Source of the DNA: a virus
DNA length: 28,733 nt
Strand: one strand, 5' to 3'
IMG/VR virus record: IMGVR_UViG_3300035136_000101
The stretch's first letter is position 1. Each line of letters opens with the position of its first letter. Positions 6,811 through 27,944 of this stretch are shown one piece after another. The notes under the pieces were generated by a model, which saw only the letters and a program-made list of their open reading frames with translations, was not told the origin of the DNA and ran no database searches. The translations under genes were made by a program, and so were the position numbers.

Positions 6811-6822
6811 TAAAAAAATTGA

Positions 6823-6838
6823 TGTTTCACGTGAAACA
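6823..6838. promoter_or_regulatory. 16-bp perfect palindrome TGTTTCACGTGAAACA, a candidate operator
   Basis: Read directly from the sequence. It is perfectly self-complementary and lies 7 nt upstream of the 6845 ATG, abutting its AGAGAGG RBS. Confidence 0.4.
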
Positions 6839-6844
6839 GAGAGG

Positions 6845-7144: not shown

Positions 7145-7154
7145 TAATTGTGTT

Positions 7155-7505: not shown

Positions 7506-7512
7506 TGTTTTT

Positions 7513-7722: not shown

Positions 7723-7738
7723 TAGTTTGTTCCTTTCT

Positions 7739-7755
7739 GTCGAAATCTTATCGAC
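7739..7755. promoter_or_regulatory. inverted repeat GTCGA-n7-TCGAC in the 5' leader of the minus-strand operon
   Basis: Read directly from the sequence. It lies between the predicted minus-strand -10 element and the RBS of the zinc-ribbon gene. Confidence 0.3.
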
Positions 7756-7766
7756 TATCTATATGA

Positions 7767-7794
7767 ATATTAACATTATGATAAAGTTTGTCAA
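7767..7794 (-). promoter_or_regulatory. sigma70-like promoter for the zinc-ribbon/REC operon
   Basis: The minus strand reads TTGACA, then a 16-nt spacer, then an extended -10 TGtTAATAT. Confidence 0.5.
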
Positions 7795-7821
7795 TTTTTT
7801 TGATAAAAAAATGCAAAAGTG

Positions 7822-7851
7822 TTGATAATAATAGCAGAAAAGTGGTATTAT
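7822..7851 (+). promoter_or_regulatory. sigma70-like promoter for the RHH gene and the downstream operon
   Basis: TTGATA (7822-7827), an 18-nt spacer, TATTAT (7846-7851), followed by an AGGAAGG RBS and the ATG at 7884. Confidence 0.4.
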
Positions 7852-7883
7852 TTACTCAAGTAGTGTTTTAGGAAGGTTGTTAT

Positions 7884-8063
7884 ATGCCAAGGTTGAATGT
7901 TGAAATAAAAAGTGGTGTATATAAGAGGTTTCTTGATCAATGTAAGGAGGATGGTAGAAGTGCTAGTGATGTTGTTAGAGAGTTGATTTTAGATTATGTG
8001 GAGAGAAGAGTTAGGGAAAAATTTAGGATTGCTAAAATAGAGAAAGAAGTTACAGATGAATGA
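7884..8063 (+). CDS. ribbon-helix-helix (CopG/Arc/ParD-like) DNA-binding protein, 59 aa, not in the ORF track
   Basis: ATG at 7884 is preceded by AGGAAGG. MPRLNVEIKSGVYKRFLDQCKEDGRSASDVVRELILDYVERR fits an RHH beta-strand plus two helices. The stop at 8061-8063 overlaps the next gene's ATG at 8056. Confidence 0.6.
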   Translation: MPRLNVEIKSGVYKRFLDQCKEDGRSASDVVRELILDYVERRVREKFRIAKIEKEVTDE

Positions 8064-8883
8064 GATGAACGATGAAAAGGTTATCGATGATAAAATTGTA
8101 TTAGGTAAGACAAAAGGTCATGTTCTTGATATAGGGCCAGGTTGTATTACTATTGAGTTGCCAGCAGGATATATTCATGAGGATGGAGAGCTTCACGTGC
8201 ATGCTGTATTACGTGAGATGAAGGGACCAGAAGAAGAATTGTTGGCTAGTAAAGGTTCAATAGTTTCTAGATTGAATGTTATAATGGGGAATTGTTTAGA
8301 GCAAATAGGGTCTATTAGTGATAAGTCTTTATTAAGAAAGATAGCTTGTAATTTGATAGCTCAAGATAGGATGGCTATTCTTTTGGCTCTTCGTAGGATA
8401 TCACTTGGTGATTTTTATGATTGTACAGTTACATGTCCAGAGTGTAATGTGAGTCAGCATGTTACGGTAAATTTATCAGAAATTGAAATTTCACCAATGC
8501 CAAATAGGATGGAAAGAGAAATGATTAATACTCTTCCTAGTGGAAGAGAAATTAAATGGCATGTGATAAGGACAGAAGATGAAGAATGGCTTACAGAGCA
8601 GCGTAAAAGAAAAAGAGATAAAGAACTTTTAACATTACATTTATTGTCTCGTGTTGATTCGATTGATGATATTGAAGTAGATAGAAAGAATAAGTATAAA
8701 GAAGCTATTGATTTGTTGATGGATTTATCGATAAGGGATAGAGCTACTTTGAGAGATCTTTTTGATAAAAAAGAAGATAATATAGATACGTTGGTGCAGT
8801 TTATGTGTGAGAGGTGTGGACATGAATGGGAAGGTAAGTTGGATGTTGGTCAGCCAAGTTTTTTCTTCCCATCGGTCAAATAG
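8056..8883 (+). CDS. hypothetical protein with two CxxC…CxxC zinc-ribbon motifs (275 aa)
   Basis: CTVTCPECN and CERCGHEW motifs are present. The gene is translationally coupled to the RHH gene. I recognise no family. Confidence 0.5.
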   Translation: MNEMNDEKVIDDKIVLGKTKGHVLDIGPGCITIELPAGYIHEDGELHVHAVLREMKGPEEELLASKGSIVSRLNVIMGNCLEQIGSISDKSLLRKIACNLIAQDRMAILLALRRISLGDFYDCTVTCPECNVSQHVTVNLSEIEISPMPNRMEREMINTLPSGREIKWHVIRTEDEEWLTEQRKRKRDKELLTLHLLSRVDSIDDIEVDRKNKYKEAIDLLMDLSIRDRATLRDLFDKKEDNIDTLVQFMCERCGHEWEGKLDVGQPSFFFPSVK

Positions 8884-9065
8884 GTGTCCTTGAGGATGAA
8901 ATATTTTATTTAATGGAAAGACAAGGACAGAGTTATTTGACCATTATGAATATGCCATATTCAAGAAGAAAGCGGTTTGTAGAAAAAAAATCTTCATTAG
9001 ATAGGTCTGCTATGAATGTTAAAAAGAATCAACAAAATTATAGCAGACCAAGACGAAGAAGGTAA

Positions 9066-9079
9066 CGAACTCGAGTTCG
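9066..9079. repeat. palindrome CGAACTCGAGTTCG (copy 2), 12 nt upstream of the tape-measure ATG
   Basis: Read directly from the sequence. It is a perfect 14-bp palindrome. Confidence 0.9.
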
Positions 9080-9090
9080 CGAGGTAAATT

Positions 9091-12075
9091 ATGGGTTTTC
9101 TTGGTATGTCATTAGAATTATCAGCTATTGATGATGGTATGAAATCAGCCATAGGGAAAGCAAGTGATTTACTTAATAATATAAATGAAATGATTCATGA
9201 CCAATTTAATGCGATAAGGAAGATAAAAAAAGAGGATTTTTTTAAAGGTATAAAAAGTGGTGCACAACAAGCTATTAAATCTATTAAGGATTTAAGTTTT
9301 GATTTTAAGTCGTTTTCTAATTTATTAGATAAGGTTGGAAAAAAATCATATGAGGTTTGGAAAAAGTTTGGAGATGGAATAAAAAAAGTTTCAGATGATT
9401 CTAAGAAACATATTGATAGTATGATGAAGCGTGTAACGCAGTTTAATATTGCTAATATGGCTTCAAATATGAAAACACTTACAGGGGAGACTGGTAATTT
9501 AACTAATAGTTTAGAAGCAACAATGACTAGTTTAATTCAAACGACAAAACCAATTGCTGCAACATTAGATTTATCAGGAAAGGAGATGAAGAAGTTTGCA
9601 GGTCAAGCGGCAAGTATGGCTTATAGTATGAATACATCGGCTGATGCTGTTGCAGAAACAATGAGATCAATTCATATAGCTAATAAGGGGGCAACAGAGG
9701 CTATGAATGAATTGGGATTGTCTACAAAAGATTGGGTTAAAGTTGTTCAAACAACTAATGTTCCTATGTCTGAATATACGGCTATTCTTGGTGATATGAC
9801 AACAAGTTGGCAAGCTTCACCAAAAGAGGCCGCTAATATGATTGACAGCCTTATGGCAATAGGAAAGGCTGCTGGAACTGGAACTGGTGCTGTAAAGAAT
9901 GCAAAAGTTCAGTTGGATGAATTAGGGGAAGTTTTTAAAACTTTGCCTCCTTCTATGGCAAGAACTTCTGATGAGATAATGAGCTTAATGCAATCATCAG
10001 CTAGAATGTCTGGTGTATTTAGAGAGATGGGAGATACGCAAGAAGAAGCTATAACAAAGGCAAATACTGTAGCAAGGATGTTTGCTGAACAGGATGTTGC
10101 TATTAGAAAAGCTTTAAATATTGGTGATGAACGTGCTCTTATGGATAATCCATTGCTTAAGTATCTTATGAGACTTGGTATTGGATTTGATTCGGCCAGA
10201 AAGATTATTGAAACTGGTAGTCGTGATGTAGTTGCTGGTATGAAGATGGTTAATAATGTTTATGCACGTTTTGGAACTGATGTGTCTCCACAGGTTCAAA
10301 GAGCTTTATCTGGATTAAGTGGTGCTCTTGGGGAAGGAGCTGCTGGATTATCATATTTGGCGACTAATACAAAACAAGGAACTGCTGCATTAGATAAAAT
10401 GGCAAATATGTCTGTTGTAGGTTCTGGAGCATTAAAGAAATTTGGAAAAGATGCATATAGTTCCGGGTTAACCTTACAAGAAACGTATGATAGAGCAAAA
10501 GAGTCATTTGATACAACTATTAGAAGTATATCCAGAGGAGATGTTAGAGGATTAGTTAGAAAACAGATAGAAGGAATGCGTCAAGCTGGTAAGGAATTAA
10601 AAAAACTTGGTTCTGATGAGACTTGGGGACCATGGATAAATGCTTTATCAAGATTTAGACAAATGGGTGTAGGTGGTATATTTTCAAGTGTTGCAGAGTC
10701 TACTGGCGTTGGTGCTGAAAATGCTGCTAAATTTGGTACCAAAGCAGGATTAATATTTGATACGGTAAGTCAACTTGGGGGTGAAATTGCTCCATTAATG
10801 CATTTATTTGGTATGACTGGTCCGCTAGGTCCATTGATTGCTATGGGAGGGTTAGGTGCATTGTTGGCTATGGATGAAGCTACTAGTAAGAAAATTTTAG
10901 GGTCATTTTATGATACATTTGCATCTTTAAAAAAGATGCTTCTTGGTGTTTGGGATGTATTTACTGATAAATTTGTTAGTATTTGGGATAATACAATAGC
11001 TCCAAAAATATCAGAAATTTGGAGTGAAATGTTATTGCCATATCTTGAGGAAACTACTCCAAGGATAGGAAAAGTATTTTTAGATGCATTCAAGTGGGCG
11101 TGGGATGCATTTTGGAGGGGAGATATGGAACAAGCACTTCTTGATGCAGAGAGGTTGAAAAAAACGGGTGTTTCTGGTCTTAGTGATAGAAAACTTGAAG
11201 AAATGTCTAAACGGAATGAAAAGGTTATAGAAGAAGAAACTAAAAATATAAATAGTCTTAAAACACTTACCATGGGAATGGGTGGTATTTCTGGTGGGTA
11301 TGCTCTTATGTATGCACCTGAGAGTAGGAAAATTGAAAAGGTTGAAGAATCTCAAAAAGCAATAGAGAGACAAAAAAAGTTTAGGAGAGATTTGGAAAAA
11401 TATGGGGCACCAAAGGCTGATATATTCACAGATGTAGCAGGTGTTTTTAGCGATTGGTCGGAAGGTGCAAAAAGTGGTGGAACAACTACTGGTGATTCAT
11501 TTGTTGAAGGAATTACAGATTCTTTGAAGAAGGGAAAAGATGTAGTTGATAAAAATGCAGGTTACGTAGCAGAAGGTGTGATATCTGAATCTCCAATTAA
11601 ATCTGGACCATTGGCTGGAGAGAAGGAAAATAATGCTGCATATCGTGGTGGTTATTTTACAATGGAGCAATTTGCTTTAGGTATTACTGATAGTACTGAT
11701 ATGATTAAGAGAGCAATTGAAGATACTCTTGCTGATTCTGTTATACTTACTATAGATACATATGCTGAAAAAATGAGAGATCTTGCTGAACAAAAGATGT
11801 TTTTAGCATCTGTTGCTAAAGCAATGGTAAAAGATTTAGGTGGAAATATAGAAACATCTATTGATTCCGAATCTGATATAAATGTGAAAAAGAATTTTGA
11901 AGCTGCTATGAATTTACCTGGTCTTGCTAGTGTTGTTTTGGCTGTTTCAAATGAAGGTGCTCAAACAAGGAAATTATTAAAACGTATTTTAGAAGAAAAT
12001 ATACGTCAAACCAGTGTAATGAGTGGCGGTGTGAGTATTTCTGTGACAGGAACTACTACTCCACCACCAAGTTGA
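9091..12075 (+). CDS. tail tape measure protein-like (994 aa)
   Basis: A long, helical, Ala/Met/Lys/Gly-rich protein with a hydrophobic Gly-rich segment (PLMHLFGMTGPLGPLIAMGGLGALLAM). It sits between the chaperone-like genes and the baseplate hub, with a GAGGT RBS. Confidence 0.65.
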   Translation: MGFLGMSLELSAIDDGMKSAIGKASDLLNNINEMIHDQFNAIRKIKKEDFFKGIKSGAQQAIKSIKDLSFDFKSFSNLLDKVGKKSYEVWKKFGDGIKKVSDDSKKHIDSMMKRVTQFNIANMASNMKTLTGETGNLTNSLEATMTSLIQTTKPIAATLDLSGKEMKKFAGQAASMAYSMNTSADAVAETMRSIHIANKGATEAMNELGLSTKDWVKVVQTTNVPMSEYTAILGDMTTSWQASPKEAANMIDSLMAIGKAAGTGTGAVKNAKVQLDELGEVFKTLPPSMARTSDEIMSLMQSSARMSGVFREMGDTQEEAITKANTVARMFAEQDVAIRKALNIGDERALMDNPLLKYLMRLGIGFDSARKIIETGSRDVVAGMKMVNNVYARFGTDVSPQVQRALSGLSGALGEGAAGLSYLATNTKQGTAALDKMANMSVVGSGALKKFGKDAYSSGLTLQETYDRAKESFDTTIRSISRGDVRGLVRKQIEGMRQAGKELKKLGSDETWGPWINALSRFRQMGVGGIFSSVAESTGVGAENAAKFGTKAGLIFDTVSQLGGEIAPLMHLFGMTGPLGPLIAMGGLGALLAMDEATSKKILGSFYDTFASLKKMLLGVWDVFTDKFVSIWDNTIAPKISEIWSEMLLPYLEETTPRIGKVFLDAFKWAWDAFWRGDMEQALLDAERLKKTGVSGLSDRKLEEMSKRNEKVIEEETKNINSLKTLTMGMGGISGGYALMYAPESRKIEKVEESQKAIERQKKFRRDLEKYGAPKADIFTDVAGVFSDWSEGAKSGGTTTGDSFVEGITDSLKKGKDVVDKNAGYVAEGVISESPIKSGPLAGEKENNAAYRGGYFTMEQFALGITDSTDMIKRAIEDTLADSVILTIDTYAEKMRDLAEQKMFLASVAKAMVKDLGGNIETSIDSESDINVKKNFEAAMNLPGLASVVLAVSNEGAQTRKLLKRILEENIRQTSVMSGGVSISVTGTTTPPPS

Positions 12076-15131: not shown

Positions 15132-15560
15132 ATGAGTATTGTTAATACGGTTCCTTCTGCAAAAGATTTGGATATTATTAAGACGTTCAAGTTTCCATTT
15201 CAAATTGGTGCTGTTGGTTTTCCAGAAATGGAAGATCCAACAAAATATAGTTTTGCAAATATTGTAGCATTGCTTTTGACTGGTGTTGGAGAGAGGGTGA
15301 TGAATGTTGGCCTTGGGGTGAATGTTCATGATTTTTTGTTTTCAAATATGACACCTATTCAACAGGTTCGTCTTTCAAGTATGGTATCTACTGCTATAGA
15401 AACATTTATACCATGGGTTAATGTTATAAGTGTAATTCCTAGTCAATTGAAGTATGATGATGGTATTGGTTCTAAAATAACGTTTGATATTACGTATTCT
15501 GTTGGAGGACAGGACAGTACTCAACAAATAATTTATCCACCAACTGTACAAGGGTATTAA
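15132..15560 (+). CDS. baseplate wedge protein (gp25 / GPW-like)
   Basis: ANIVALLLTGVGERVMNVGLGVNVHDFLFSNM matches the GPW/gp25 core (iL.T..GeR…fG…l…lF). An AGGGT RBS is present. Confidence 0.75.
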   Translation: MSIVNTVPSAKDLDIIKTFKFPFQIGAVGFPEMEDPTKYSFANIVALLLTGVGERVMNVGLGVNVHDFLFSNMTPIQQVRLSSMVSTAIETFIPWVNVISVIPSQLKYDDGIGSKITFDITYSVGGQDSTQQIIYPPTVQGY

Positions 15561-15561
15561 A

Positions 15562-17742
15562 ATGTCAGATGACCAATATAGTCCGTTAGTTCCAGACCAA
15601 ACGTTTTTGAATGAAGTGAAATATGCTGCTCGAGATTTTGTTTCTATTGCTGATGATTTGCTTCGTAGATTAAAAATAGAATATGGTACCGTATATAATG
15701 ATTATGCAAGTACTTCTCAGGGGATAATGTTGAGAGACCTTGTGGCATGGGCTTATGCTGCTTTAACATGGTATTTGGATAGGACTGCATCAGATTGTTT
15801 TTTATCTACAGCAAGGACCAGAAGCGCAGTAGAACGACTTGTAGAACAAATTGCATATAAGATGACACCTGCTTCTCCTGCTGGAACTACGTTGGTTTTG
15901 ACTTTTCCTGGTGGAACTACATCAGGATTCATAATGAAAGATCGGTGGAGATTTCAAGGACCAAATGGATTGACTTTTGAGTCTTATGCTAAAATAACGC
16001 AATCATCTGCTTTGTCAGAAGGTGCAACAATAAATGTAGATGTAAGGCAAGGTGATACTAGGATATTAACTTATACTGCAAATGGTAGTAAGAATCAGAC
16101 ATATAGATTAGCCAATATTTTAGAAGATCGTTTTCTTGCTGTAGACGCTACTGAAGTATGGGTTGATGGTCAGTTGTGGGAAGAAAAGGATTTTTTAGAG
16201 TATGAAAAAACAAATCATTATGAGATTAGTTATTTAGCTAATCCACCGATTATTAGATTTGGTGATGGATTGGCAGGTAATATACCTGCGTCTGGTTCTG
16301 AGATAAAAATTCGTTTTTTGATTATTGATGGTAAAAATGGTAATGTAAGAAGTAATACAATACAATCTTCTATTGATACTTTGACGATAAATGGGCAACC
16401 TGTTTTATTTGATGTTAACAATACAAATCGTGCTGTAGGTGGATTAGATCCAGAAGATGCTGAGAAAGCAAAACGTTTGGCTCCTTCAAGTTTTGCTGCT
16501 CGTGGTGCTGCAATAACACAACAAGATTACGAGGCTCTTTCAAATAGTTTTGTAGATCCAGCATATGGGGCAGTTGCAAAAGCATATGCTGTTAATCCAA
16601 GGAGTTTTTATAGTGATACAGTATTTAATGCATTAGTTGTTGATATTCAAACGTTGCTTTTATCTTTTTCTAGTATTATTGGAGCAATGGAAGAGTCAGT
16701 AATTATTGATGCTGCATCTTTGACAACAGCTTTAGCATCAATAGAGACATCAGTGGATGAATTAGACACCTTAAGGCAACAAATATATAGTTGGTCTGGG
16801 GCTGCTTCTGCTGGTGCTTCTTCTGCTAGAAGTTCAATGAATGAGGCTTCTTCTAGAAGTACATTGGCTATGAATTTAGCTAATGATGCAATAAATACTG
16901 GTGAAGCATTAGTTCAATATATTCAGGATGGAAATACTAATATTGATCATATTTTGGCAGAAGTTAATAATATGCTTGTAGATATAACGGGTTCTCATCA
17001 GGAATCTACACAAGCTGCAAGTGTCGCATCTTCTGCATCTTCTGCTATAGAAAATGTTGTATTGTTAAATTCTAATAATATAATGAATGCTACTAATACA
17101 GATGGGGCTGTAGATATAGAAGTTAATAATATAGTTTCTCAAATATCTTCTTTGGCTATTCATATTAGTAATATTCAAAGTACTTTATCTTCTATAGATG
17201 GTAATTTTGATTCATTATCTTCTCAAATTAATTTAATTATGTCAGATATGAAAGATAGAATAGGCGTTTTATTTTCTGATGATTGTTTGTCAAATTATGT
17301 TCAGGTTCCTATTTTGTCATTAGATTTAGATGGTAATTATTCTTCTCCATCTATTGGATTGAGGTCTGCGTTACAAGAATATTTGGATGGAATAAAAGAA
17401 GTTACACAAGTTGTAGAGGTTGTTGATGGAATTTCTGTTCTTATTTTGGCTGACATTTCTATAAAAGTTAAGATTATTGAAGCATATGTTATTTCTGAAG
17501 TTAAATCTCAGATTGAATCTGTTGTTATAAGTCTTTTAAAGGGAAGAGAGTTTAATCAACCATTATATTTGTCTGATTTATATGATATTGTTACAGAATC
17601 TTCGGCTGGGATTAATTATGTGAATATTTCTATAACTGGACCAACTGATTATTTAGTAGATGGAAATCTTATTCCAGATTCAAATCAAGTGATAGTATTG
17701 GGAAGTCTTGTTATAAAAAATGAAATAGGAGAAATATTATAA
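15562..17742 (+). CDS. baseplate J-like (gp6 / gpJ) protein, extended to 726 aa
   Basis: The N-terminal region (FLNEVKYAARDFVSIADDLLRRLKIEY…GIMLRDLVAWAYAALTWYLDRTASDCFLSTARTRSAVERLVEQIAYKMTPASPAGTTLVLTF) fits the Baseplate_J consensus. It lies directly after the gp25-like gene and overlaps the next gene by TAATG. Confidence 0.7.
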   Translation: MSDDQYSPLVPDQTFLNEVKYAARDFVSIADDLLRRLKIEYGTVYNDYASTSQGIMLRDLVAWAYAALTWYLDRTASDCFLSTARTRSAVERLVEQIAYKMTPASPAGTTLVLTFPGGTTSGFIMKDRWRFQGPNGLTFESYAKITQSSALSEGATINVDVRQGDTRILTYTANGSKNQTYRLANILEDRFLAVDATEVWVDGQLWEEKDFLEYEKTNHYEISYLANPPIIRFGDGLAGNIPASGSEIKIRFLIIDGKNGNVRSNTIQSSIDTLTINGQPVLFDVNNTNRAVGGLDPEDAEKAKRLAPSSFAARGAAITQQDYEALSNSFVDPAYGAVAKAYAVNPRSFYSDTVFNALVVDIQTLLLSFSSIIGAMEESVIIDAASLTTALASIETSVDELDTLRQQIYSWSGAASAGASSARSSMNEASSRSTLAMNLANDAINTGEALVQYIQDGNTNIDHILAEVNNMLVDITGSHQESTQAASVASSASSAIENVVLLNSNNIMNATNTDGAVDIEVNNIVSQISSLAIHISNIQSTLSSIDGNFDSLSSQINLIMSDMKDRIGVLFSDDCLSNYVQVPILSLDLDGNYSSPSIGLRSALQEYLDGIKEVTQVVEVVDGISVLILADISIKVKIIEAYVISEVKSQIESVVISLLKGREFNQPLYLSDLYDIVTESSAGINYVNISITGPTDYLVDGNLIPDSNQVIVLGSLVIKNEIGEIL

Positions 17743-20700
17743 TGTCAGAAAGTCCAAGATATAATTGGCCTATTCCACAATGGAATGCTGATTGGCAATC
17801 ATGGCAGCAAAGATTTGAAGATCTTTCAAATGATATTGATTCTACTGTATTTTCAAATATGGAAGGATCTAAGTGTATATTTTATCAGCTTCCAAATGCT
17901 AGAGTTTATGATGATTCAGGTACTTATAAACTTGAGATGCTTTCTGATTTGATTCTTATTTCAAGAACTTATAATATGAAAGTTACGGTTGATTCATCAA
18001 GTGATTTAGTACTGATTCCATATAATTTGATAGGATTAACGTTTACTGCTGGAACTGTGGAAGAAACCACGGTTGAGTTCGAATTATTTAATACAGCACC
18101 AATAGATTCAGACGTTCATATTTTTGGATATGTTACAGCGGATTATTCAATAAATTGGTTTAATGGTTCAGTATTTGCTGATGGTGAAGATGCTAGACAA
18201 ATGTTTTCTTTTTTGGCATCTACAGGTGCTGATACAAATAAAGTAAAAGTTACCAATGCTGATACTACAGCTGATTTTCTAAGTAGTAAAATAACTTCTG
18301 GTTCAAATATTACGATTAATGTTTTAAATCCAGGTGGTGATGAAGAATTAGAAATAGTTGCAACTAGTGGGTATTGGAGTAGAAATGCAGTTCCAGCATA
18401 TGTGTATCCAACTACAGATACTGATGCTATGAGAATAGGAGATGGTAGTGTTTCAGTTCCAGGTATTGCATCGAAAACGTATGTTGATACAGGGTTTAGA
18501 TGGGATGTAACAGAATCTCCATCTAGTAGTAATGAAGATAGTATATATTTTGTTTCAGAGGGTAATGATGTTGCGTCAGTTTATTATGATAATACTACTT
18601 CAGAACAAGTTATTTCTTTTGTTGATGAAGCTACAAATGATAATGCAACAATAAGAAAAAGAATGGTACCAGGTACAGCATCAGATTTAGTTGTTTTTAA
18701 TATTGAAGTAGAAGGAGGAGTAAATACAGATGGTTCTCAGTTGATTTTAAAATCAATGACTAATGATGATACATCTCATCTTCAGACTTCTACTGTTGAA
18801 ATTGAAAGTATTGCTTCAGGATTGGATGCTTTGTCTGTATTAAAAGCATCAACTGGAGTAGGTGCTACATCTGGTACTGCTGAAGTACAAATTTTAGCAG
18901 AGGGATATAATGATGTAAATTGTTTAATTAGAGCTCAAGATTTGGCTGCACATACAACATCGATAGTGATATTATCTGATGGTGGGTCAGTATCGGATGT
19001 TTCGATTAAAGCAGAAGGAACTGTTCAATCAAATGCAGAATTTGGTACAGACCCAAGTACTGGTTATGCATATACAGATTTGTTTGCTATATCAACAGAT
19101 TCGTTATCAAGTATGGAGATAATTTCACAATCTGGTGGTGGTGGAAATATTGATGCTGAACTTGATATAAAAGCATTAAATAATGGTGCAGATGCATATG
19201 ATGATGCAACTGTAGTTGTTAGAAGTTATGCTGTTGCAGGTTATGCATCTGTAGTAATTGGTGCTCCAAGTACTGAGGATGTTATATTATCTGTAAGTGA
19301 TTCTGTATTTTTTAAATTTGCAGATGTAGATAAACTAGAGGTTTATCATTCTACTGATACAGTAGTGTTTAGTACCTTTGAACCAGATGATACGTTATCT
19401 GTATTAGAATTTAGTCATAAGAAGTATGCTGGAACAAGTGAAGCTGCGATTGAATTTAATGTTATTGGTGACACTGGAACAGGTGGGTCTAGATTTACTA
19501 TAAATAGTTATAATTATGAAACTACAGATAAAGCAGATATTGAGATTTATGCTAATGGTGGTACTCCCAAAATTGATATTGTAGCAACTTCTACAGGTAG
19601 TGGATTGGCAGAAGTAAATTTGTATGCTGATGGTAATGTAACTGGAGATGGAGAAGTAGATATATTAGCTACAAGTGCAACATCAAATGCTTTTGTTCAT
19701 ATTGCTGCAGAGGGAAATGTTAGTGGAATAGTGTATGTTGGATCGATATCAACAGATATAGTTGCTTTTACTGATGTATCTTCATCTGCTATTCATGGTG
19801 TATGGTCTGAAGATGCAATTCCTTTTTCTATTAGTCCATCAGAATGGACAACGTACAATTCAAATTTTGGTGAAGTATCATTATTGGCTGCATTAAATGT
19901 GGCATATACTTCAGGTGGTGGTAGTGTATCTGAGCCTGCTGGACAGATTGTGTATGGTACAGGAGCTGGTGTTGATTCCTCTTCTATATTTATGTGGGAT
20001 ACTGTAAATAGTGTTCTTATAGTAGGTCATAATGGTACTAGACAAGCTACATCTTTAGATAGTAAGGCTGAAATTCAAGATGGAATAACATCAGGAAAGT
20101 GGACAACTACATTAGCAGATTCATCAGCGTTATCATTTATAAGAAGTTATAATGTTTCTGTAGGTTCTCATACTGCTGTTCCTGCAGATGGTTATCTTGG
20201 TGAGATTAATTTTTATGGATCTACAGGAAGTGCATGGGCTGAAGGTGCTCGTATTATAGTTTCTGCTGCTAGTACTTTTTCTGGAACAAATTCTGGGTCT
20301 GATTTAAGTTTTTATATAACAGAAAAAACTACTACTACTCCAGCATTGGCTATGCGTCTTGATTCTAATGGATATCTTTCGATTACGGATTCATCTTCTG
20401 CTGCAGCAACGGCTGCTCTTGAGATATTTGGCAATGGAGATAATACATATGATAATATATTAGCTTTGTCGTTTTTTAGTGATTATACAGGTGAGCGACC
20501 GATGGTTAGGATAAGAAAATCTCAGACTGATACTATTGGGAATCATGGTGCTGTTTCTTATGGATCGGCATTAGGTGAGATAGTTTTTCAAGCATCAAAT
20601 GGAACATCGTTTGCAAGTGCTCTTGAACTTAGGACTGTTGCTACAAGTCCATGGTCTGGGTCATCAGAAGGAGCAAAATTAGAATTATGGCAATCTCTTG

Positions 20701-21725
20701 CTGGAGATACTGGTATTGAAAGAGCGGTTGTAATTTATAGGGGTGGTGAATTATTAACAGCGAGTGGATATTCAACAGTACACATGCATATAGGTGATGA
20801 TGGTGATCATGAATCACTTGTTATAAGAGCTAATAATTTATTTGTATTTCAAGATGTTAATACTTTAGATGATTCTTATATGGGTGGTAATCTTGTTGTT
20901 GGTGGTGGAAATGATTTTGATGGGTCATATTTGTCTGATTCTATAATTGTTGGTGATTCTAATAGTTTCACTACTTCTTCAGGATTGATTTATAGAGGAA
21001 ATTCTAATACTATATCATCAGTTCAAGATTCATTATTATTGTTGACTAGTACGAATCCAACTAATATTACAAAATCTATTGCTATTTGTACTAGTTCTAC
21101 TTTTCAAAACTGTAGTAATACAATTGCTGTTGGTTCTGCGCATGTTTGTCAAAACAGTAGTTATAGTTTAATGCTTGGATATGGATGTTATAGTGATACG
21201 CATCCTGGTGTAGTTGTTAGAGGGCAAAGGTCAAAGGCTGATTTTGATTATGGTGAATTTTTTACAGCTGGAAGACTCGATGGTTCTACATTAGGTAGTT
21301 CTCAAGCATTTAAAGCTATTCCAATGATGTATAGAACTACTGATACTACACCAACGGTTCTTACTACTACTGGTTCTGGAACTACTTCTCCTTTAGTGAT
21401 AGAAGAAGAATATCTATATTGTTTTGAATGTCGTTTAGTTGGTACAGCACATGGGGCTACTGTTGATGCAATTGAGATTTGGGTTTGGGATGTTGAGGTG
21501 TGGAGGAATTCTGTGAATGGTATACAATTTCATGAAACAGAGAGATATCATATTGCTTTAAGTGGTGGAGTTGGGAATGCAAGTTGGCAAAAAAATGATA
21601 CGGATCATACATTAGAACTTGAAGTTCAAGGTACAGGTAGTGAACTTCTTGAAGTTGATTGGTTTGCTCATATATGGGGAGGAGTTAAGCTTAAAACTAC
21701 TTATGATGAAATATATGGTGGGTAG
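17742..21725 (+). CDS. large distal baseplate / tail fibre-like protein (1327 aa)
   Basis: Sits immediately after the J-like gene. Long Ser/Thr/Gly-rich repetitive beta-type sequence (…TGSGLAEVNLYADGNVTGDGEVDILATSATSNAFVHIAAEGNVSG…) is typical of fibres. I recognise no conserved gpI N-terminus. Confidence 0.4.
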   Translation: MSESPRYNWPIPQWNADWQSWQQRFEDLSNDIDSTVFSNMEGSKCIFYQLPNARVYDDSGTYKLEMLSDLILISRTYNMKVTVDSSSDLVLIPYNLIGLTFTAGTVEETTVEFELFNTAPIDSDVHIFGYVTADYSINWFNGSVFADGEDARQMFSFLASTGADTNKVKVTNADTTADFLSSKITSGSNITINVLNPGGDEELEIVATSGYWSRNAVPAYVYPTTDTDAMRIGDGSVSVPGIASKTYVDTGFRWDVTESPSSSNEDSIYFVSEGNDVASVYYDNTTSEQVISFVDEATNDNATIRKRMVPGTASDLVVFNIEVEGGVNTDGSQLILKSMTNDDTSHLQTSTVEIESIASGLDALSVLKASTGVGATSGTAEVQILAEGYNDVNCLIRAQDLAAHTTSIVILSDGGSVSDVSIKAEGTVQSNAEFGTDPSTGYAYTDLFAISTDSLSSMEIISQSGGGGNIDAELDIKALNNGADAYDDATVVVRSYAVAGYASVVIGAPSTEDVILSVSDSVFFKFADVDKLEVYHSTDTVVFSTFEPDDTLSVLEFSHKKYAGTSEAAIEFNVIGDTGTGGSRFTINSYNYETTDKADIEIYANGGTPKIDIVATSTGSGLAEVNLYADGNVTGDGEVDILATSATSNAFVHIAAEGNVSGIVYVGSISTDIVAFTDVSSSAIHGVWSEDAIPFSISPSEWTTYNSNFGEVSLLAALNVAYTSGGGSVSEPAGQIVYGTGAGVDSSSIFMWDTVNSVLIVGHNGTRQATSLDSKAEIQDGITSGKWTTTLADSSALSFIRSYNVSVGSHTAVPADGYLGEINFYGSTGSAWAEGARIIVSAASTFSGTNSGSDLSFYITEKTTTTPALAMRLDSNGYLSITDSSSAAATAALEIFGNGDNTYDNILALSFFSDYTGERPMVRIRKSQTDTIGNHGAVSYGSALGEIVFQASNGTSFASALELRTVATSPWSGSSEGAKLELWQSLAGDTGIERAVVIYRGGELLTASGYSTVHMHIGDDGDHESLVIRANNLFVFQDVNTLDDSYMGGNLVVGGGNDFDGSYLSDSIIVGDSNSFTTSSGLIYRGNSNTISSVQDSLLLLTSTNPTNITKSIAICTSSTFQNCSNTIAVGSAHVCQNSSYSLMLGYGCYSDTHPGVVVRGQRSKADFDYGEFFTAGRLDGSTLGSSQAFKAIPMMYRTTDTTPTVLTTTGSGTTSPLVIEEEYLYCFECRLVGTAHGATVDAIEIWVWDVEVWRNSVNGIQFHETERYHIALSGGVGNASWQKNDTDHTLELEVQGTGSELLEVDWFAHIWGGVKLKTTYDEIYGG

Positions 21726-21746
21726 TAATAATATGAGAGGTATTTG

Positions 21747-22625
21747 ATGAATATATATTATATAAATTTGGACCGTTCAGAAGATAGAAGAGAAAAAATG
21801 GAGAAATCTTTTGAGCATGAAAAATTAATAAGGATATCCGCTATAGATGGCATGGAATGGGCTATTGAAGATACGTTTGATACTAGAGGGTTTCCTGTAT
21901 GGAATTTAGAGTATCGTGATAAATTTGTTAATGAAGGTATATTATTTGAAAATAGTATTCTTCCACCAACTCATGTTGCGTGTAATTTAAGTCATAGAAA
22001 GGCTATTCAGGAGTTTTTGAATACTGATGATGAATGGGCAATTATTATGGAGGATGATGTTGAAAAGTCAAAAGCTTATTTTAAAGATGGAGAATTGATA
22101 GAAAAAAAAGTAGTTATTCCTAGTGATGCTGATATGTTTTATTTATGTGGGACAAGACCAGATAGACGGATATACGTTTTTGATGATGGTCAAGTTAGAA
22201 AAACTAGGACATTGATGGGATATTGTATATCAAGAAGAGGTGCTGAATTATTTTTAAAATCAACAATACCAATGATGTGGCTTTCTGATTATCAATTTCC
22301 TGTTTGTTGTTTTGATAGTATGTTAAATAATATAAGAGAGATTAAAATAAGAGATAGAAAAATAGTTTTTAAAAAGCGTATATTATTTAAAGAGAACAAA
22401 GATGATAAAGGAAATATTATAAGGAAGAAAAAGGAATGTGTTTCATTTTCAATTCCAAATAAAGATAACTATAGGACTATAAAACCAATTTTTCCAAAGG
22501 AAATAGAAAGTGAAGAAAAGATAAAAGCTTTTGCTGATAAAAAAGATGGTTTAATAAGACATTCTATTTTGTCTAAGCAATCATTACTTGGTAATTATGA
22601 AGGACATGGGAAAAGATTTTATTGA
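21747..22625 (+). CDS. glycosyltransferase family 25 (LgtB/Lic2A-type LOS glycosyltransferase-like)
   Basis: The N-terminus NIYYINLDRSEDRREKMEKSFEHEKL…ISAIDG matches the GT25 signature (IsL.rs.eRR…AvDG). I place the start at ATG 21747, 6 nt after a GAGAGG RBS. The track's start at 21744 is a TTG. Confidence 0.7.
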   Translation: MNIYYINLDRSEDRREKMEKSFEHEKLIRISAIDGMEWAIEDTFDTRGFPVWNLEYRDKFVNEGILFENSILPPTHVACNLSHRKAIQEFLNTDDEWAIIMEDDVEKSKAYFKDGELIEKKVVIPSDADMFYLCGTRPDRRIYVFDDGQVRKTRTLMGYCISRRGAELFLKSTIPMMWLSDYQFPVCCFDSMLNNIREIKIRDRKIVFKKRILFKENKDDKGNIIRKKKECVSFSIPNKDNYRTIKPIFPKEIESEEKIKAFADKKDGLIRHSILSKQSLLGNYEGHGKRFY

Positions 22626-22628: not shown

Positions 22629-23195
22629 ATGAAGAAAGAAGAGGGTTATAAAGGTATGAAATATCGAGATGTTGATGCGTTGTTGAAGATTTTTAAAAAG
22701 CTTGCTAAGACAGTTGAAGTTATTCCAAGGTGGGAAAATGCTAAACGTGTAAAAGTATTAAAGGAGATTATTGGACCTATTGATATAGCGCGTGAAGTAA
22801 CTGATGAGATGAAATCTTATTATGAGAAACAAGATAAGATATTTGAAAAACATGGTACGCCAGTTTCTAGTCAAGGTGGAATGGGTTACAGGATTGAAAA
22901 TTGGGGACCAGTTAATGAAGAAATTGCTATTTTAAAAGAAGAGAATAAAGATCTTTTAGAGAAGGAAAGAGAAAGAAAAAAAGATATAGAACTTTTACTT
23001 GATAAGGATGTTGAAGTTAATATTGAACCAATTGATTATGAATGGTGTGGAGATTTAATTGATGGGAATGATCTTGTTGTATTAATGGATTTTAATCTTG
23101 TAAATGAACCTATGTCTGATGAAGAAGCTGAAGAAGCTGAAGATGCAAAACTTAAAAATATTAGGAATCAGAAAAAAAGAGCAAGAAAGAAATAA
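22629..23195 (+). CDS. hypothetical charged (Lys/Glu-rich) protein (188 aa)
   Basis: A complete ORF that abuts the GT25 gene. I recognise no family. Confidence 0.35.
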   Translation: MKKEEGYKGMKYRDVDALLKIFKKLAKTVEVIPRWENAKRVKVLKEIIGPIDIAREVTDEMKSYYEKQDKIFEKHGTPVSSQGGMGYRIENWGPVNEEIAILKEENKDLLEKERERKKDIELLLDKDVEVNIEPIDYEWCGDLIDGNDLVVLMDFNLVNEPMSDEEAEEAEDAKLKNIRNQKKRARKK

Positions 23196-23213: not shown

Positions 23214-25478
23214 ATGTCTCTAGTTTCTAGTAGTATAAATAAGTCTAGGATAAAGTTTCGTTTTGCTGAAAGATATGCTAGTGATGCAGCAAATATTCAG
23301 ACAGGAGTGAATAGTCCTGGTGTTTATAGAGGTGCAGAAGTATTAGAATCTGAAGGTGGAGCAGATACTTCTTTTAGAATTGAGCTCGGACCAGAAAATG
23401 ATTCATTGATTCTTCATCAGAATATTACAAATGGAATGGCCACAGTTGTTAGATTGGAATCAAGAGTCATATTAGATATGAGTTCTCAAACATGGCCTAT
23501 TCCTTCAGATGTTGAATGGGTTGTTTATATGGTTGTTAATTATCAGGATTTTCAGGATACGACTGGAGCTTTTGAGGTTGATATTCCATCTAATGTTCCT
23601 GATGATGCAGTTATTCTTGCTCATATATTGATGCAATCTGGTGATATTTCTATATTGCAATCAAGAATTAGGACTGATGGTAGTTATAGGGATAAGGTTT
23701 TAGGTAAGAAAGGGATACTTGTAAGAAGAAAAATTGAAAAAACTACTAGTAGTGCAACAAGATTTCAACTTACAGGTAGGATATCATTTGTTGATAAAAC
23801 GTATAATTGGGCTGGGAAAGTTAGACTTGTAGTCGGAATAAGTAATGATACAGGGATGATTGGAAGTAATGGTGGTGCGATATCTGCTGGGTCATGGTAC
23901 ACACAAGAAATTGGTGGTAGTGCAATAACTGTATCAGATTTGGATGAAGATGGTTGTTATACTGATCCATGGATTTCTATGTCATTTCTTGATGTTTCTG
24001 AATCTAATTGGACTGGAACGTTTGCTGTTGTTTATTGGGAATTTGTAGAGTTTGAAAATCTTGATACTGATGATGCTGTTGCTACAGATGTAAATCCTCA
24101 TGCAAACAATGTTTATTGTAAAGAAAATACAACATATACTGATGCACAATTATCTAATGGTTCATTAACTAGTCAGATTAGTAGTTTATTGTATCATATA
24201 CAACAGAGGATTAAGGATATTCATCCAGATTCTGTTTCATCTTCATGGACTTTATTATGGAGGTCAAACAATGTTATATTTGATTCTAATGTAGATGAAA
24301 AAACTGTATCGGTTTATTTTTCTAGTGAAGGTATTCTTGTATGCAAGGGTGGGTATATGAGTGGTACCAATGATTTTCATATAAATGAAATTGGTTATTG
24401 TTCTGTAGTATTTATAGATGATGACAAAATTTATAAAATGGTGAGGTCATTTATAAGTGCTCCTACTTCTGTAGATATACGCTATGATGGAGATTGGGAT
24501 TCTTGGGATAGATATGGAGCAGGCCTTTTTACATTTGGAACAAGTGGTGTTCAACGTTTATTTAATTTTTTTGAGTATGGAACTGCAAAAATGGCAGCAT
24601 TGCCTAATGAAGGAGGAAGAGATTTTCGTTTAGAAATTCTTCGTTTGGCAGAACATGTTCGTGTTTATTATACAAATCCTGATGATGGTGCATCTTTTGA
24701 AATTGCATGTGGTTGTTATTGGGATGACTCCGTTAATTTATGGAAAAGAGTAGGTACACAAGAATTTAATAGTGTATTATATTCTTTTACTAGGTCTGGA
24801 TTTGTTTTTTTTAATAAAAATCGTAATGATGCAAATTGGACAACTGGTTGGAGTTCAACGGATTTTTCTGTATCATGGTCATTTTCAGATGATACGAGTT
24901 TTTCACCGATTAAGTTAGTTGGTTCAATAAAAGAAGAATGGGATGTAGATTTTAGGGTTGTTTTATCAAATGATTTGATAAAGGCAATGGGAAAATTTGT
25001 AGGATGGGACGGTGTTGAGAGAGGAAAAAAACTTTTTTATAGAGGTGAAAGATTAATTGTACCTTCAACTGGCAATTTTTCAGTAGTAAAGAAAAGTGGT
25101 CTTAATGCGGATATAGTAGTAAGTGCTCCGACTAGTTGGGGATTTACCGCTGGAGGTCTTATATATTTAGTTGATTCTTTAGAAGGTGCAGCTATTTATA
25201 CTCTTGTTAGTGATAGAATAAATTTAATTGGATGGAATTTAGGAATAAATCCTGGTTCTCATATTTGTTTGAGAGGTGATGGAGTTAATAAATCATGGTT
25301 GGTTAAAGAAGTTTATGAGTTGGGTGGTGCAACAAATAATACATCATGTATCGTAGAAACTAATAGTGGTGTTGATAATGTTCCAACATCTGTAGGAACG
25401 AAAAAAGCGTATTATGTACCAAATTTTGATTTAGGAAGTGAAGTAACAGCTGTTTATACAATAAAATTGTTTGGATGA
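23214..25478 (+). CDS. hypothetical large protein (754 aa); its position suggests a tail fibre or receptor-binding protein
   Basis: A complete ORF with a GGGAG RBS. I recognise no family. Confidence 0.35.
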   Translation: MSLVSSSINKSRIKFRFAERYASDAANIQTGVNSPGVYRGAEVLESEGGADTSFRIELGPENDSLILHQNITNGMATVVRLESRVILDMSSQTWPIPSDVEWVVYMVVNYQDFQDTTGAFEVDIPSNVPDDAVILAHILMQSGDISILQSRIRTDGSYRDKVLGKKGILVRRKIEKTTSSATRFQLTGRISFVDKTYNWAGKVRLVVGISNDTGMIGSNGGAISAGSWYTQEIGGSAITVSDLDEDGCYTDPWISMSFLDVSESNWTGTFAVVYWEFVEFENLDTDDAVATDVNPHANNVYCKENTTYTDAQLSNGSLTSQISSLLYHIQQRIKDIHPDSVSSSWTLLWRSNNVIFDSNVDEKTVSVYFSSEGILVCKGGYMSGTNDFHINEIGYCSVVFIDDDKIYKMVRSFISAPTSVDIRYDGDWDSWDRYGAGLFTFGTSGVQRLFNFFEYGTAKMAALPNEGGRDFRLEILRLAEHVRVYYTNPDDGASFEIACGCYWDDSVNLWKRVGTQEFNSVLYSFTRSGFVFFNKNRNDANWTTGWSSTDFSVSWSFSDDTSFSPIKLVGSIKEEWDVDFRVVLSNDLIKAMGKFVGWDGVERGKKLFYRGERLIVPSTGNFSVVKKSGLNADIVVSAPTSWGFTAGGLIYLVDSLEGAAIYTLVSDRINLIGWNLGINPGSHICLRGDGVNKSWLVKEVYELGGATNNTSCIVETNSGVDNVPTSVGTKKAYYVPNFDLGSEVTAVYTIKLFG

Positions 25479-25484: not shown

Positions 25485-27944
25485 ATGACAACGACTTTAA
25501 ATTATCCAAGTGGGACTGGTTTTTTTGGGAGGGGATATTGGGGAAGAAAAGTATTTTGGTTAAATGTACCTTCTCAATGGAGGAATTTAGACCAGTATAA
25601 TTATTTGCAAATGTTGCTTAATACATGGGGGGATGTAGGTGAGAATTTAATTGAATATATTAAACTTCTGCCTAAACAAAGAGACCCATATGAAGTTAGG
25701 ACGTTAAATACTATAGTAAAATGGTTTTATGTAACAGAAGCATTTAATTATTATGATAAAGATAAAGGAAATGTAATTAGATTAATAGGTGAGAAAAATC
25801 CAGATAGATTACCAGGATCTAGTTTGTCATCAGTGCCAAGTACTGATGAAGATGTAATGTCGGAACAATTTCCTTGGTATCCGTATGAGCCATTAGCTGA
25901 TGTAGGTAAATTTTGGCAAGTTAAATGGATGGATGCGAAGTATGAAGTTGTAAATGTAAGGGCTAGAAATTTTGACCAAGTTGAAATATATAATCAATAC
26001 ACTTCGTTGGCAAATGAGATATGGGTAAAGGGTGGAGATTTAACGTTATTATTTGATTATTTAACAAATAGATTATGGGATAAGTCTATAGAAGATGACC
26101 TAATTCAAGGTACTGTAGAAATAGGTATTACTGATGGGTCTCAGAGACCATATGTTGAATTTCCTGTTACTCCAATAAGGCTTGAGAATAGGTGGTCTGA
26201 TGTTGTTCCTCCATCAACTTTGATTGAGTCATCTACGTTAAGAATTTATATTCCATTACAGGGTGGTGGATATAGAATACTTTATGATTTGCCAATAAGT
26301 GAAAATGAGGGGACATTACATGCAGAAAGTGGAGGAATAATAGGTGGTGCTGTTGTTGGAAATGTTAATTATTTATCTGGTAAATTAGATTTTGATTTAT
26401 CTATATTGTCTGAATTTTCATCACAGACGGCACTAGATATAAAAGCAAAATATCAAGTTAGGGGATATTATATGAAATTTAATGCGCCACCTAATATTGA
26501 TTATTTGGCGCATGATTACGGATTTAATAATGACGAGAATGACCCAGAAGATGTTCAGAGGTCATCTATAGCTAATGTAACAAAATTTTGGGGTATTAAA
26601 TCAACACAAGATTCGTATCGTATTAGAGGGGAAATAAGTCTTTTTGATGTTTATATGCAAGGTTTGTATAAAATTTGTAGTGCTGAACTTGCGTCTAAAC
26701 TTCCAAGCAATTCTGTTTATGAAGTAGGAACAACTTTTTATACTGATGTTATGCCAACATTTATACGGTATGACCATATTTCTGTAGATGAACTATTTTA
26801 TGACTATGATTCTGGTGGAAGTCCGATATGGGTTACTATAATAGATAATATGCTTATTGCATTGGATTCTTCTAGATGGGACGGCATGACAATAGGTCAG
26901 GCATATGCTGTAGATGTGACTCAGGGATATTATGCTCCAATATCAGAAGTTAATGCAGTCTTACGTGGACCCGCAACTGTTCAGTCTGTTACGCAGATTA
27001 GCCAAGAAGAGCTTGAAGAAAGAAGATGGGAGAATGGGTATAGATATGAAATAGAGATGCGTAGATGTCAGTATGAAGCGTTTAATATGATATTAGATTC
27101 TAATGGTATACAGACGAAGGAATTGTTTGCTTTATCTGTATATGATTATAATCCTGTTGGTCCAGAATATGGTATTCCACCTAATGTAAATGATGTTTAT
27201 TATTATATTGATCGTGAAGATACAACTTGGACTCTTACATCTTCTCCATCATCAGACCCAAAAGAAGATATTGGAGTTTGGACTGTAGATATTAGATTTG
27301 GAGTTGGTGTTTCTTCTCCGATACAAGTATCTGATGATATTGCTGTTAGATATTTTCCGTTATTTGATGATATGGATTGTTGTTATTGTAGAGCTAGTAG
27401 TATGCGTGCTTATATTGACGTTATAGAAGAAGCATATGATTTTTATGATACATATGAAAAAATAGAGTATGCAATTACAAGATTAAAAATGAAATTGAGT
27501 GATCTTTTGCCTATTCATACTAGAATTATTGAATGGGAGATTACAAGACGATTTCAAGAAGAATTTTATGGTGTTGAAAATGGTGCTACAGTTATTCATA
27601 CATTAACTGGAGAGCAATTTTTAAATAATACAAAAGTTTTATTATCAGTTAAATATCGTGGTGATAGTGATTCTGGAACACCTAATACAGATTTGGATTT
27701 TCGTGTATATAGTGAAGATACCGGTACTGTTTGGGAATTATTAAATTGGAATCCAGTTACTCCTGCTGGTGATAATGAAACATGGGTTGATGTTGTTACA
27801 GATGAAGAAATAATTCTTCCTGATGACCCATCAGACCCTGGTCCACCAATAGTTCCATATTATGCATCGGTTCGTGCTATTGCTGGTTCTGCGTCTTTAT
27901 ATGGTGATGTTATGTGGATTTTTAAGATTACTACTAAGGAGTAA
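25485..27944 (+). CDS. hypothetical large protein (819 aa); its position suggests a tail fibre or receptor-binding protein
   Basis: A complete ORF that abuts its neighbours. I recognise no family. Confidence 0.35.
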   Translation: MTTTLNYPSGTGFFGRGYWGRKVFWLNVPSQWRNLDQYNYLQMLLNTWGDVGENLIEYIKLLPKQRDPYEVRTLNTIVKWFYVTEAFNYYDKDKGNVIRLIGEKNPDRLPGSSLSSVPSTDEDVMSEQFPWYPYEPLADVGKFWQVKWMDAKYEVVNVRARNFDQVEIYNQYTSLANEIWVKGGDLTLLFDYLTNRLWDKSIEDDLIQGTVEIGITDGSQRPYVEFPVTPIRLENRWSDVVPPSTLIESSTLRIYIPLQGGGYRILYDLPISENEGTLHAESGGIIGGAVVGNVNYLSGKLDFDLSILSEFSSQTALDIKAKYQVRGYYMKFNAPPNIDYLAHDYGFNNDENDPEDVQRSSIANVTKFWGIKSTQDSYRIRGEISLFDVYMQGLYKICSAELASKLPSNSVYEVGTTFYTDVMPTFIRYDHISVDELFYDYDSGGSPIWVTIIDNMLIALDSSRWDGMTIGQAYAVDVTQGYYAPISEVNAVLRGPATVQSVTQISQEELEERRWENGYRYEIEMRRCQYEAFNMILDSNGIQTKELFALSVYDYNPVGPEYGIPPNVNDVYYYIDREDTTWTLTSSPSSDPKEDIGVWTVDIRFGVGVSSPIQVSDDIAVRYFPLFDDMDCCYCRASSMRAYIDVIEEAYDFYDTYEKIEYAITRLKMKLSDLLPIHTRIIEWEITRRFQEEFYGVENGATVIHTLTGEQFLNNTKVLLSVKYRGDSDSGTPNTDLDFRVYSEDTGTVWELLNWNPVTPAGDNETWVDVVTDEEIILPDDPSDPGPPIVPYYASVRAIAGSASLYGDVMWIFKITTKE

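Follow-up and report, generated by a model that had tools for sequence, protein, structure and literature searches.

Bacteriophage tail fibre genes are well known to occur in cassettes with the gene for a cognate assembly chaperone, as in P2 (H-G), Mu (S-U), lambda (stf-tfa) and T4 (gp37-gp38). Receptor-related genes linked to those of receptor-binding proteins (RBPs) are also established, examples being the gtr/O-antigen conversion genes beside the tailspike gene of P22 and epsilon15, llp-oad of T5, and cor beside the tail genes of phi80 and N15. Cytoplasmic glycosyltransferases are encoded beside the Ser/Thr-rich, beta-rich adhesins that they modify before export or assembly in the pairs AIDA-I/Aah and TibA/TibC, and within glycosyltransferase family 25 (GT25) COLGALT1 is a proven protein O-glycosyltransferase. 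The subject of the present analysis is a GT25 gene (21747..22625, + strand) in a 28,733-nucleotide (nt) stretch, hereafter the window, of the virus record IMGVR_UViG_3300035136_000101 from IMG/VR, where it lies in a contractile-tail module directly after the gene for a fibre-like protein of 1327 amino acids (aa) (17742..21725, + strand). Judged by comparison of genes, the enzyme belongs to a small phage-specific clade and forms a core component of a mobile unit consisting of a fibre tip and its GT25. The closest described case of virion modification is that of the mycobacteriophages (Freeman et al. 2023, as cited in PMC12619734 and PMC12801897), where phage glycosyltransferases decorate virion proteins, the targets named in the summary given by PMC12619734 being the C-termini of capsid and tail-tube proteins. 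In both instances the glycosyltransferase is phage-encoded, and here it is also genetically linked to its putative structural target; the present case differs in that the predicted target is a fibre tip, in that a single GT25 is rigidly paired with the target gene, and in that the system is known from genes alone.

A fibre tip paired with a GT25 was found in at least four unrelated phage backbones, the relatives all being metagenomic and their independent lineages few (~6 backbones). The tip of the window protein is its C-terminal domain (residues ~1138-1327; 21153..21722, + strand), which is homologous to the C-termini of the fibres encoded before GT25 in the loci L015/L014, L148 and L150. 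L015/L014 represent a GC-rich P2/Mu-like myovirus in which the gene order is tape measure - hub - hub - W-like - J-like - 271 aa - 450 aa - GT25, followed by products of 151 and 211 aa and a tail fibre. The GT25 of this phage (249 aa) is, at 43% identity, the nearest relative of the window enzyme outside its own clade, and the last ~200 residues of the preceding 450-aa protein are homologous to the last ~190 of the 1327-aa protein (E 1e-8 to 8e-12).

Searches conducted with the tips alone, which fall into a type A (that of the window) and a type B, led in every case to a GT25 immediately after the fibre gene (4/4 type A and 10/10 type B loci, hence 14/14). The reverse approach, an exhaustive search of 1.84 billion representative sequences with GT25, gave 514 matches at E <=1e-3, 61 at <=1e-10 and 12 at <=1e-30, and in two of the three loci reached via GT25 alone (L148 and L150) the upstream proteins, of 640 and 973 aa respectively, end in a type A tip (E 2e-25 and 7e-27). 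Tip types A and B are themselves homologous, as indicated by a profile-profile hhalign probability of 96% (E 3.5e-9, 174 columns), the probability being only 31% in a single-sequence comparison of the distal fibre of L007 with the type A tip. In a neighbour-joining tree of the enzymes, GT25 clades A and B match tip types A and B whatever the backbone, with the L120 enzyme and those of cyanophages falling outside both clades. In L015 and the type B loci, GT25 starts -4, -1, 0, 0, +1 and 0 nt from the fibre stop, as against 7-28 nt in the window clade. Homologues of the 188-aa protein encoded directly 3' of the window GT25 (22629..23195, + strand; 43% charged residues), a protein retained at that position in all relatives of the clade, follow the enzyme in L119/L145-147 (28% identity, E ~1e-18) and in L149 (36%, 2e-29), and this protein may thus sometimes be a third member of the module.

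A different arrangement occurs in the relative L007, in which the distal 400 aa of the fibre differ from those of the window and a second GT25 (GT-B, 237 aa) lies between the fibre gene and the resident enzyme (GT-A). The same pair of distal fibre (tip B) and GT-B, in the same order, was also found in the P2-like phages L116, L117 and L138-140, between the large terminase and portal genes of L118, L143 and L144, and in a lineage of 110-kb contigs (L119, L145-147). Relative to the L007 copies, the identities of GT-B and tip B were 80 and 75% in L138, 80 and 54% in L117, 70 and 48% in L116, 67 and 41% in L118, and 52 and 30% in L119, the two thus falling in the same rank order over the five loci. 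The L007 island (8070-9989) has third-codon-position GC contents (GC3) of 0.26 (tip) and 0.50 (GT-B), as against 0.13-0.21 for the backbone, and shares 75% (distal fibre) and 78-80% (GT25) identity with the P2-like pair. The island being compositionally foreign, tip and GT-B arrived together and, it appears, recently, and on this evidence they came from GC-rich P2-like phages such as L138-140. The site occupied in L118 (IMGVR_UViG_3300031371_000005, 3096-10504), where the fibre-like gene and GT25 stand between large terminase and portal, is an unusual one for a fibre gene.

In the P2-like loci the order is W - J - I-like - fibre - GT25, and the enzyme therefore occupies the slot of the gpG chaperone. 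The parallel with the fibre-chaperone cassettes is accordingly threefold, comprising a position directly after the fibre gene, co-variation and transfer with the tip, and the gpG position in P2-like loci; the resemblance does not extend to the protein, which has no similarity to Tfa, gp38 or gpG and which, having an intact active site, is an enzyme and does not have the fold of a chaperone. That tip and GT25 move as a unit suggests that the enzyme acts on the host-recognising fibre. The proposal of the earlier note that it may glycosylate a tail fibre or receptor-binding protein thereby gains strong, albeit indirect, support from co-inheritance and co-transfer of the two genes, the acceptor itself remaining a matter of deduction.

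The GT25 gene begins with an ATG at 21747, preceded at a distance of six bases by the Shine-Dalgarno sequence GAGAGG (21735-21740) within the 21-nt junction (21726..21746, + strand, as read from the sequence) that separates it from the stop of 17742-21725; a TTG at 21744 is an alternative start, and the next open reading frame (ORF) begins 3 nt past its end. The 292-aa product matches Pfam PF01755 (Glyco_transf_25) over residues 2-171 (positions 3-186 out of 199 in the profile), scoring 45.2 bits (E 1.3e-11) where the gathering score is 24, and also matches PHROG 2835 'glucosyltransferase' (E 1.1e-20); Pfam and PHROGs returned GT25-type matches only, and NCBIfam none. When a 23-sequence family profile was compared with solved structures, the best match was the catalytic GalT-C domain of human COLGALT1 (6.9e-26), followed by mimivirus R655 (8e-20) and a bacterial GT25 beta-1,4-galactosyltransferase (8xc8; 2e-16). 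An AlphaFold2 (AF2) model adopted a GT-A fold with a predicted local distance difference test (pLDDT) score of 73 overall, 81-95 over residues 1-130 except for one block at 75, and 51-89 over residues 131-172. The top Foldseek matches of this model in the PDB were again COLGALT1, R655 and the bacterial GT25 galactosyltransferase (E 3e-8 to 3e-5), with vaccinia H3 also present among the structural matches.

Residues R354, G377, S415 and E435-x-D437 of COLGALT1 bind Mn2+ and uridine diphosphate (UDP), and mutation of R354, E435 or D437 abolishes activity (PMC11897130). A HMMER alignment placed R14, G35, S82, E102 and D104 of the window enzyme opposite R354, G377, S415, E435 and D437, with no equivalent of T571 mappable; the E-x-D metal-binding motif E102-D103-D104 (GAG GAT GAT) is encoded at 22050..22058 (+ strand). 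All five residues are invariant in the 23-sequence alignment (A2), and in a wider 16-sequence set, as among the fibre-coupled relatives, the sole exception is the replacement of S82 by Gly in L015. Ratios of non-synonymous to synonymous substitution (dN/dS) in pairwise comparison with six relatives were 0.26-0.37, or 0.13-0.34 for the catalytic part and 0.27-0.52 for the C-terminal part; those of the fibre-like neighbours were similar (0.20-0.40), and those of the baseplate core, at 0.10-0.24, indicated tighter constraint. The active site is thus intact and the gene under purifying selection, and the enzyme is probably catalytically competent. The family assignment made in the earlier note is accordingly upheld by the above-threshold Pfam match and the GT-A fold matches, and the degenerate catalytic motifs that it had named beforehand as grounds for refutation were sought and the motifs found to be intact.

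The enzyme shares the domain, GT-A fold, E-x-D motif and UDP-contacting residues of the GT25 family at large, which includes LgtB/Lic2A/LpsA, the collagen hydroxylysine galactosyltransferases COLGALT1/2 and mimivirus R655, and differs from them in belonging to a phage-only clade, in its fibre-linked context and in an insertion of ~46 aa; its identity to any characterised or bacterial member is 18-37%. The insertion (residues ~205-250; 22359..22496, + strand), a predicted beta-hairpin in which AF2 confidence is low, is confined to the GT25s of the window phage clade and missing from the 237-249-aa enzymes of L015 and L007 (GT-B). A separate C-terminal extension domain was considered and rejected, the additional length being this clade-specific insertion located before a KIKAFAD..GLIRHS motif (nt 22518-22565) that is common to long and short GT25s. 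No transmembrane segment was detected in the product (maximum Kyte-Doolittle 19-residue hydropathy, KD19, 0.64), which is predicted to be soluble. It is also basic and Lys-rich (isoelectric point (pI) 8.6, rising to 9.7 in the C-terminal part), whereas the surrounding structural proteins are acidic (pI 4.2-5.1).

The partner of the enzyme, the 1327-aa protein, follows directly on the gp6/J-like gene and has a pI of 4.2 and a Ser+Thr content of 22%; its fibre-like assignment is made by position and composition. Similarity to the 973-aa protein of L150, itself a match to a PHROG tail-fibre family, extends over its residues 734-1321 and 162-355, and its mid-region repeats recur in a 785-aa metagenomic protein (P0032). 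The protein is mosaic, with only residues 1-760 conserved in L007. A search of a word-indexed collection of 5.8 billion proteins with the C-terminal 247 aa (20982-21722) gave no match, and the full-length query, applied to the same index, retrieved nine homologues covering the C-terminal region at 53-100% identity (P0023-P0030), so that the empty result looks like a gap in index sensitivity rather than biology. Within the type A tips, a Thr-rich RTTDxTxT...SPL loop is invariant (alignment A3). RTTDxTxT was considered as a general acceptor sequon and dropped, being absent from type B tips and represented by RTTG in one relative. A collagen-like acceptor, by analogy with COLGALT1, was likewise rejected, the 1327-aa protein having no G-X-Y repeats and there being no lysyl hydroxylase nearby.

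In the window clade, more than seven relatives have the GT25 gene at the equivalent position, the most divergent with 54% identity and synonymous divergence (dS) >1, and the order gp25 - gp6-like - ~1327 aa - GT25 - ~180 aa - 754 aa was kept in every relative retrieved. The GC3 of the gene (0.17) is native when set against that of its neighbours (0.12-0.20). No promoter or terminator specific to its flanks was detected, promoter-like sites being fewer than in shuffled sequence, although the consensus scanned for was of the E. coli type, which makes this weak evidence. No close copy was present in 185,579 bacterial and archaeal species, each represented by one genome, the best bacterial matches, in Opitutae/Verrucomicrobiota and Rhizobium, having 25-37% identity and being uninformative as to the host. 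The native GC3, lack of flanking sites, 21- and 3-nt gaps, conserved order and absence of a close bacterial copy together argue against a lysogenic-conversion moron, and those reference genomes, one per species, yielded no prophage copy that would point to lysogenic conversion. The alternative offered in the earlier note, a moron that modifies host surface glycans, thus found no support in a gene that has no promoter or terminator of its own, is native in composition, occurs in every relative examined, and abuts or overlaps the fibre stop in relatives.

By way of contrast, GT25 genes elsewhere among viruses occur in different surroundings. In cultured phages they were found in cyanomyoviruses only (P-SSM2, S-T4 and Sf-CH8), where they sit among glycosyltransferases, epimerases and heptose enzymes beside hli and ferredoxin genes, and their products share 24-29% identity with window-type enzymes over the aligned catalytic region. 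Five sampled GT25 loci of uncultured viruses were flanked by GT2, GT11, epimerase/dehydratase, a protein with a DPBB lytic-transglycosylase domain, and a porin. The GT25s of cyanomyoviruses and giant viruses share the Pfam family with the window enzyme but stand in glycan clusters beside auxiliary metabolic genes. That the earlier note called either role unusual within a tail operon was consequently fair, the cyanophage and five sampled viral genes lying in multi-enzyme glycan clusters rather than tail modules; its placement of the gene was also correct in coordinates and in context, between fibre-like genes of the tail module and with three ORFs of no recognised family after it. A separate observation concerns L120 (IMGVR_UViG_3300017991_000077, 3789-10318), where a distant GT25 (32% identity) lies among phosphoheptose-isomerase-like, QueC-like, radical-SAM and GtrB-like genes together with that of a queuine tRNA-ribosyltransferase (DpdA-like), an assembly that possibly unites DNA-modification and glycan genes in one cluster.

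The reading that we favour, to which we would give an even chance, is that GT25 is the cognate glycosyltransferase of the fibre tip, encoded in the slot normally taken by genes for fibre-assembly chaperones. According to this proposal, a soluble, Mn2+- and UDP-sugar-dependent GT-A enzyme would be made together with the fibre from the late tail operon and would glycosylate the C-terminal tip of the upstream 1327-aa fibre in the cytoplasm, before or during fibre assembly. No genes for sugar-nucleotide synthesis accompany GT25, and the sugar donor would for that reason probably be a common host UDP-hexose. In effect the enzyme would serve the maturation of its cognate fibre tip and pass from phage to phage along with it. 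The acceptor, and likewise the sugar and linkage, are what we infer. A fibre-tip acceptor is favoured because the family includes a protein O-glycosyltransferase in COLGALT1, because GT25 is translationally coupled to the gene of its putative substrate with an adjacency stricter than a trans-acting function needs, because it stands alone and does not belong to a glycan pathway, and because late expression suits the modification of a late protein. A functional analogy may be drawn with AIDA-I/Aah and TibA/TibC, although the enzymes of those pairs are heptosyltransferases of another family that act on autotransporters outside phages.

Several observations weigh against a tip glycosyltransferase. 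Its support consists throughout of genomic association, and an enzyme that masks the receptor would yield the same pattern. The characterised bacterial GT25s (LgtB/Lic2A/LpsA) act on lipooligosaccharide (LOS), not on protein. The RTTDxTxT loop is not kept in type B tips and reads RTTG in one close relative, and alignments revealed no acceptor motif common to tip types A and B. AF2 modelling of the tip with 8 sequences gave a pLDDT of 47.6, which is unusable as a structure. In L149, a truncated contig and the third of the loci reached via GT25 alone, the last 199 aa of the upstream gene product have no similarity to the tip. Finally, GT-A of L007 has been kept under purifying selection despite the replacement of tip A: relaxed selection on the orphaned gene was considered and not seen (dN/dS 0.28 compared with 0.24 for a control pair), a comparison of low power because the tip swap appears recent.

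The strongest alternative, one we hold to be unlikely but which deserves serious consideration, is that GT25 modifies a glycan of the host surface, such as the core of LOS or lipopolysaccharide (LPS) or another polysaccharide, that is recognised by the adjoining tip, and thereby blocks superinfection or the loss of progeny onto cell debris. It accords with the known activity of bacterial GT25s as LOS/LPS core beta-glycosyltransferases (Pfam description, and the match to the beta-1,4-galactosyltransferase 8xc8), and the basic C-terminal part (pI 9.7) is reminiscent of peripheral-membrane LOS transferases. Co-inheritance of an RBP tip with a receptor-specific enzyme would explain the linkage and co-transfer of tip and GT25 equally well, and a host glycan as target would make it easier to understand why L007 has kept GT-A although it lost tip A. 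The comparison with RBP-linked receptor genes holds in so far as these also lie beside an RBP gene and have a specificity matching the receptor; they are, however, separate units, often encoding membrane proteins and expressed early or in the lysogen, whereas GT25 is soluble, operonic and coupled to a late gene. An enzyme whose gene lies among late structural genes, in many cases with translational coupling, would have little time to remodel an existing surface, and the 0-28 nt adjacency maintained in every backbone exceeds what such a role requires. Neither an independent promoter or terminator nor a compositional anomaly marks the gene, which is never missing in relatives; no flippase or GtrA/GtrC-like family was found in the window or its flanks (~50 kb of the 158-kb metagenomic contig from which the window comes), the enzyme has no membrane segment, and the 185,579 reference genomes hold no prophage copy.

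We consider it improbable that the protein has a non-catalytic role, either as a tip-specific assembly chaperone with a GT-A fold or as a minor virion or baseplate component (lectin-like, or an adaptor). The location in the fibre-chaperone slot and the co-variation with the tip are those of Tfa, gp38 and gpG; vaccinia H3, which belongs to the virion and has a glycosyltransferase fold, offers a precedent as well as a structural match, and the clade-specific insertion and basic C-terminal part could dock an acidic fibre. The Mn2+ and UDP residues are nonetheless kept, with the one change S82G in L015, across clades that are 30-45% identical, which would be unexpected were catalysis dispensable. 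The pI of 8.6 and Lys-rich composition are moreover unlike those of the acidic structural neighbours, and Pfam and PHROGs gave no similarity to known families of fibre chaperone.

Least probable of all is an acceptor elsewhere, be it the hypermodified bases of phage DNA or a different protein of the virion (the 754- or 819-aa product, for example), with adjacency to the fibre merely historical: GT25 is not a known family of DNA glycosyltransferases, no base-hydroxymethylase or other DNA-modification gene occurs in the ~50 kb examined, and purely historical adjacency would not survive repeated transfer with the tip into four backbones. The points in its favour are that DNA glycosylation by phage glycosyltransferases is known (reviewed in PMC12619734), that the distant GT25 of L120 stands beside DpdA-like and QueC-like genes, and that GT-A persists in L007 without tip A.

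The remainder of the module is that of a contractile tail, with an unusually long sheath protein of 931 aa (398-3193), two adjoining tube-like paralogues of 175 and 185 aa (3947-5053), a T4-baseplate-like gene, a tape measure, a gp5/V-like gene, a gp25/W-like wedge protein (15132..15560, + strand; PHROG 261/43, and PF04965 on the source contig) and a 726-aa gp6/Baseplate-J-like wedge protein (15562..17742, + strand; PHROG 219, E 2.5e-26), the last with tblastn matches to T4-like gp6 and baseplate J proteins; a hub gene is also among the contractile-tail genes around GT25. These are followed by the 1327-aa ORF, GT25, and ORFs of 188, 754 and 819 aa. The 754-aa protein (23214..25478, + strand) is 63-93% identical in relatives and gave no match in searches of Pfam, PHROG, NCBIfam and the PDB. 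The 819-aa protein (25485..27944, + strand) is mosaic in relatives, its 972-1069-aa counterparts sharing the N-terminal ~127 aa and the longest of these having a weak match to DUF4082, which suggests, from the pattern of exchange, a second exchangeable receptor-binding protein. Neither the 188- nor the 819-aa product matched a family in Pfam, PHROG or NCBIfam, and PDB sequence searches with the 1327-, 754- and 819-aa proteins were also without a match. Comparison of the region by megablast, and of the fibre by tblastn, with 50,697 phage records yielded no match and no close relative.

Two ORFs on the minus strand break the otherwise all-plus tail module: 7155-7505 (116 aa) and 7513-7722 (69 aa), the former having a sub-threshold match to a CheY-like response-regulator receiver domain (28 bits as against a gathering score of 30.2). 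Just past the end of the window (L109, 12463-14313; also L001) lies the gene for a second tube-like protein of 262 aa with an above-threshold match to CIS_tube (E 1.2e-7), after which come an ORF of 75 aa and one for a 273-aa papain-like protein (Peptidase_C1, E 2.3e-7), an order that is the same in all relatives.

The genomic association of tip and GT25 is robust, judged across the loci compared, and to our knowledge new: the literature searched contained no paper on bacteriophage tail-fibre glycosylation, on a GT25-fibre-tip pair or on a glycosyltransferase dedicated to a tip, and the phage virion glycosylation documented so far, as summarised in papers citing the original work, is that of mycobacteriophage capsids and tail tubes. 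Whether the acceptor is the tip or a host glycan, tip and GT25 would constitute a clean, testable two-gene system, and were receptor masking to be the true function, enzymatic masking wired into late tail operons would be likewise undescribed for GT25. A broader and more tentative proposition, which we regard as possible but somewhat doubtful, is that the fibre tips of this family are obligate glycoproteins, each travelling with its own GT25 for the sake of folding, stability, receptor recognition or evasion of defences, and that the unit of host-range exchange is a two-gene cassette of tip and glycosyltransferase in which the enzyme replaces the classical chaperone. If the tip does need its enzyme, host-range engineering by RBP swap would have to move both genes, pipelines that predict structure or host on the assumption of an unmodified fibre polypeptide would go wrong in this family, and the gene found after a fibre gene could no longer safely be taken for that of a chaperone.

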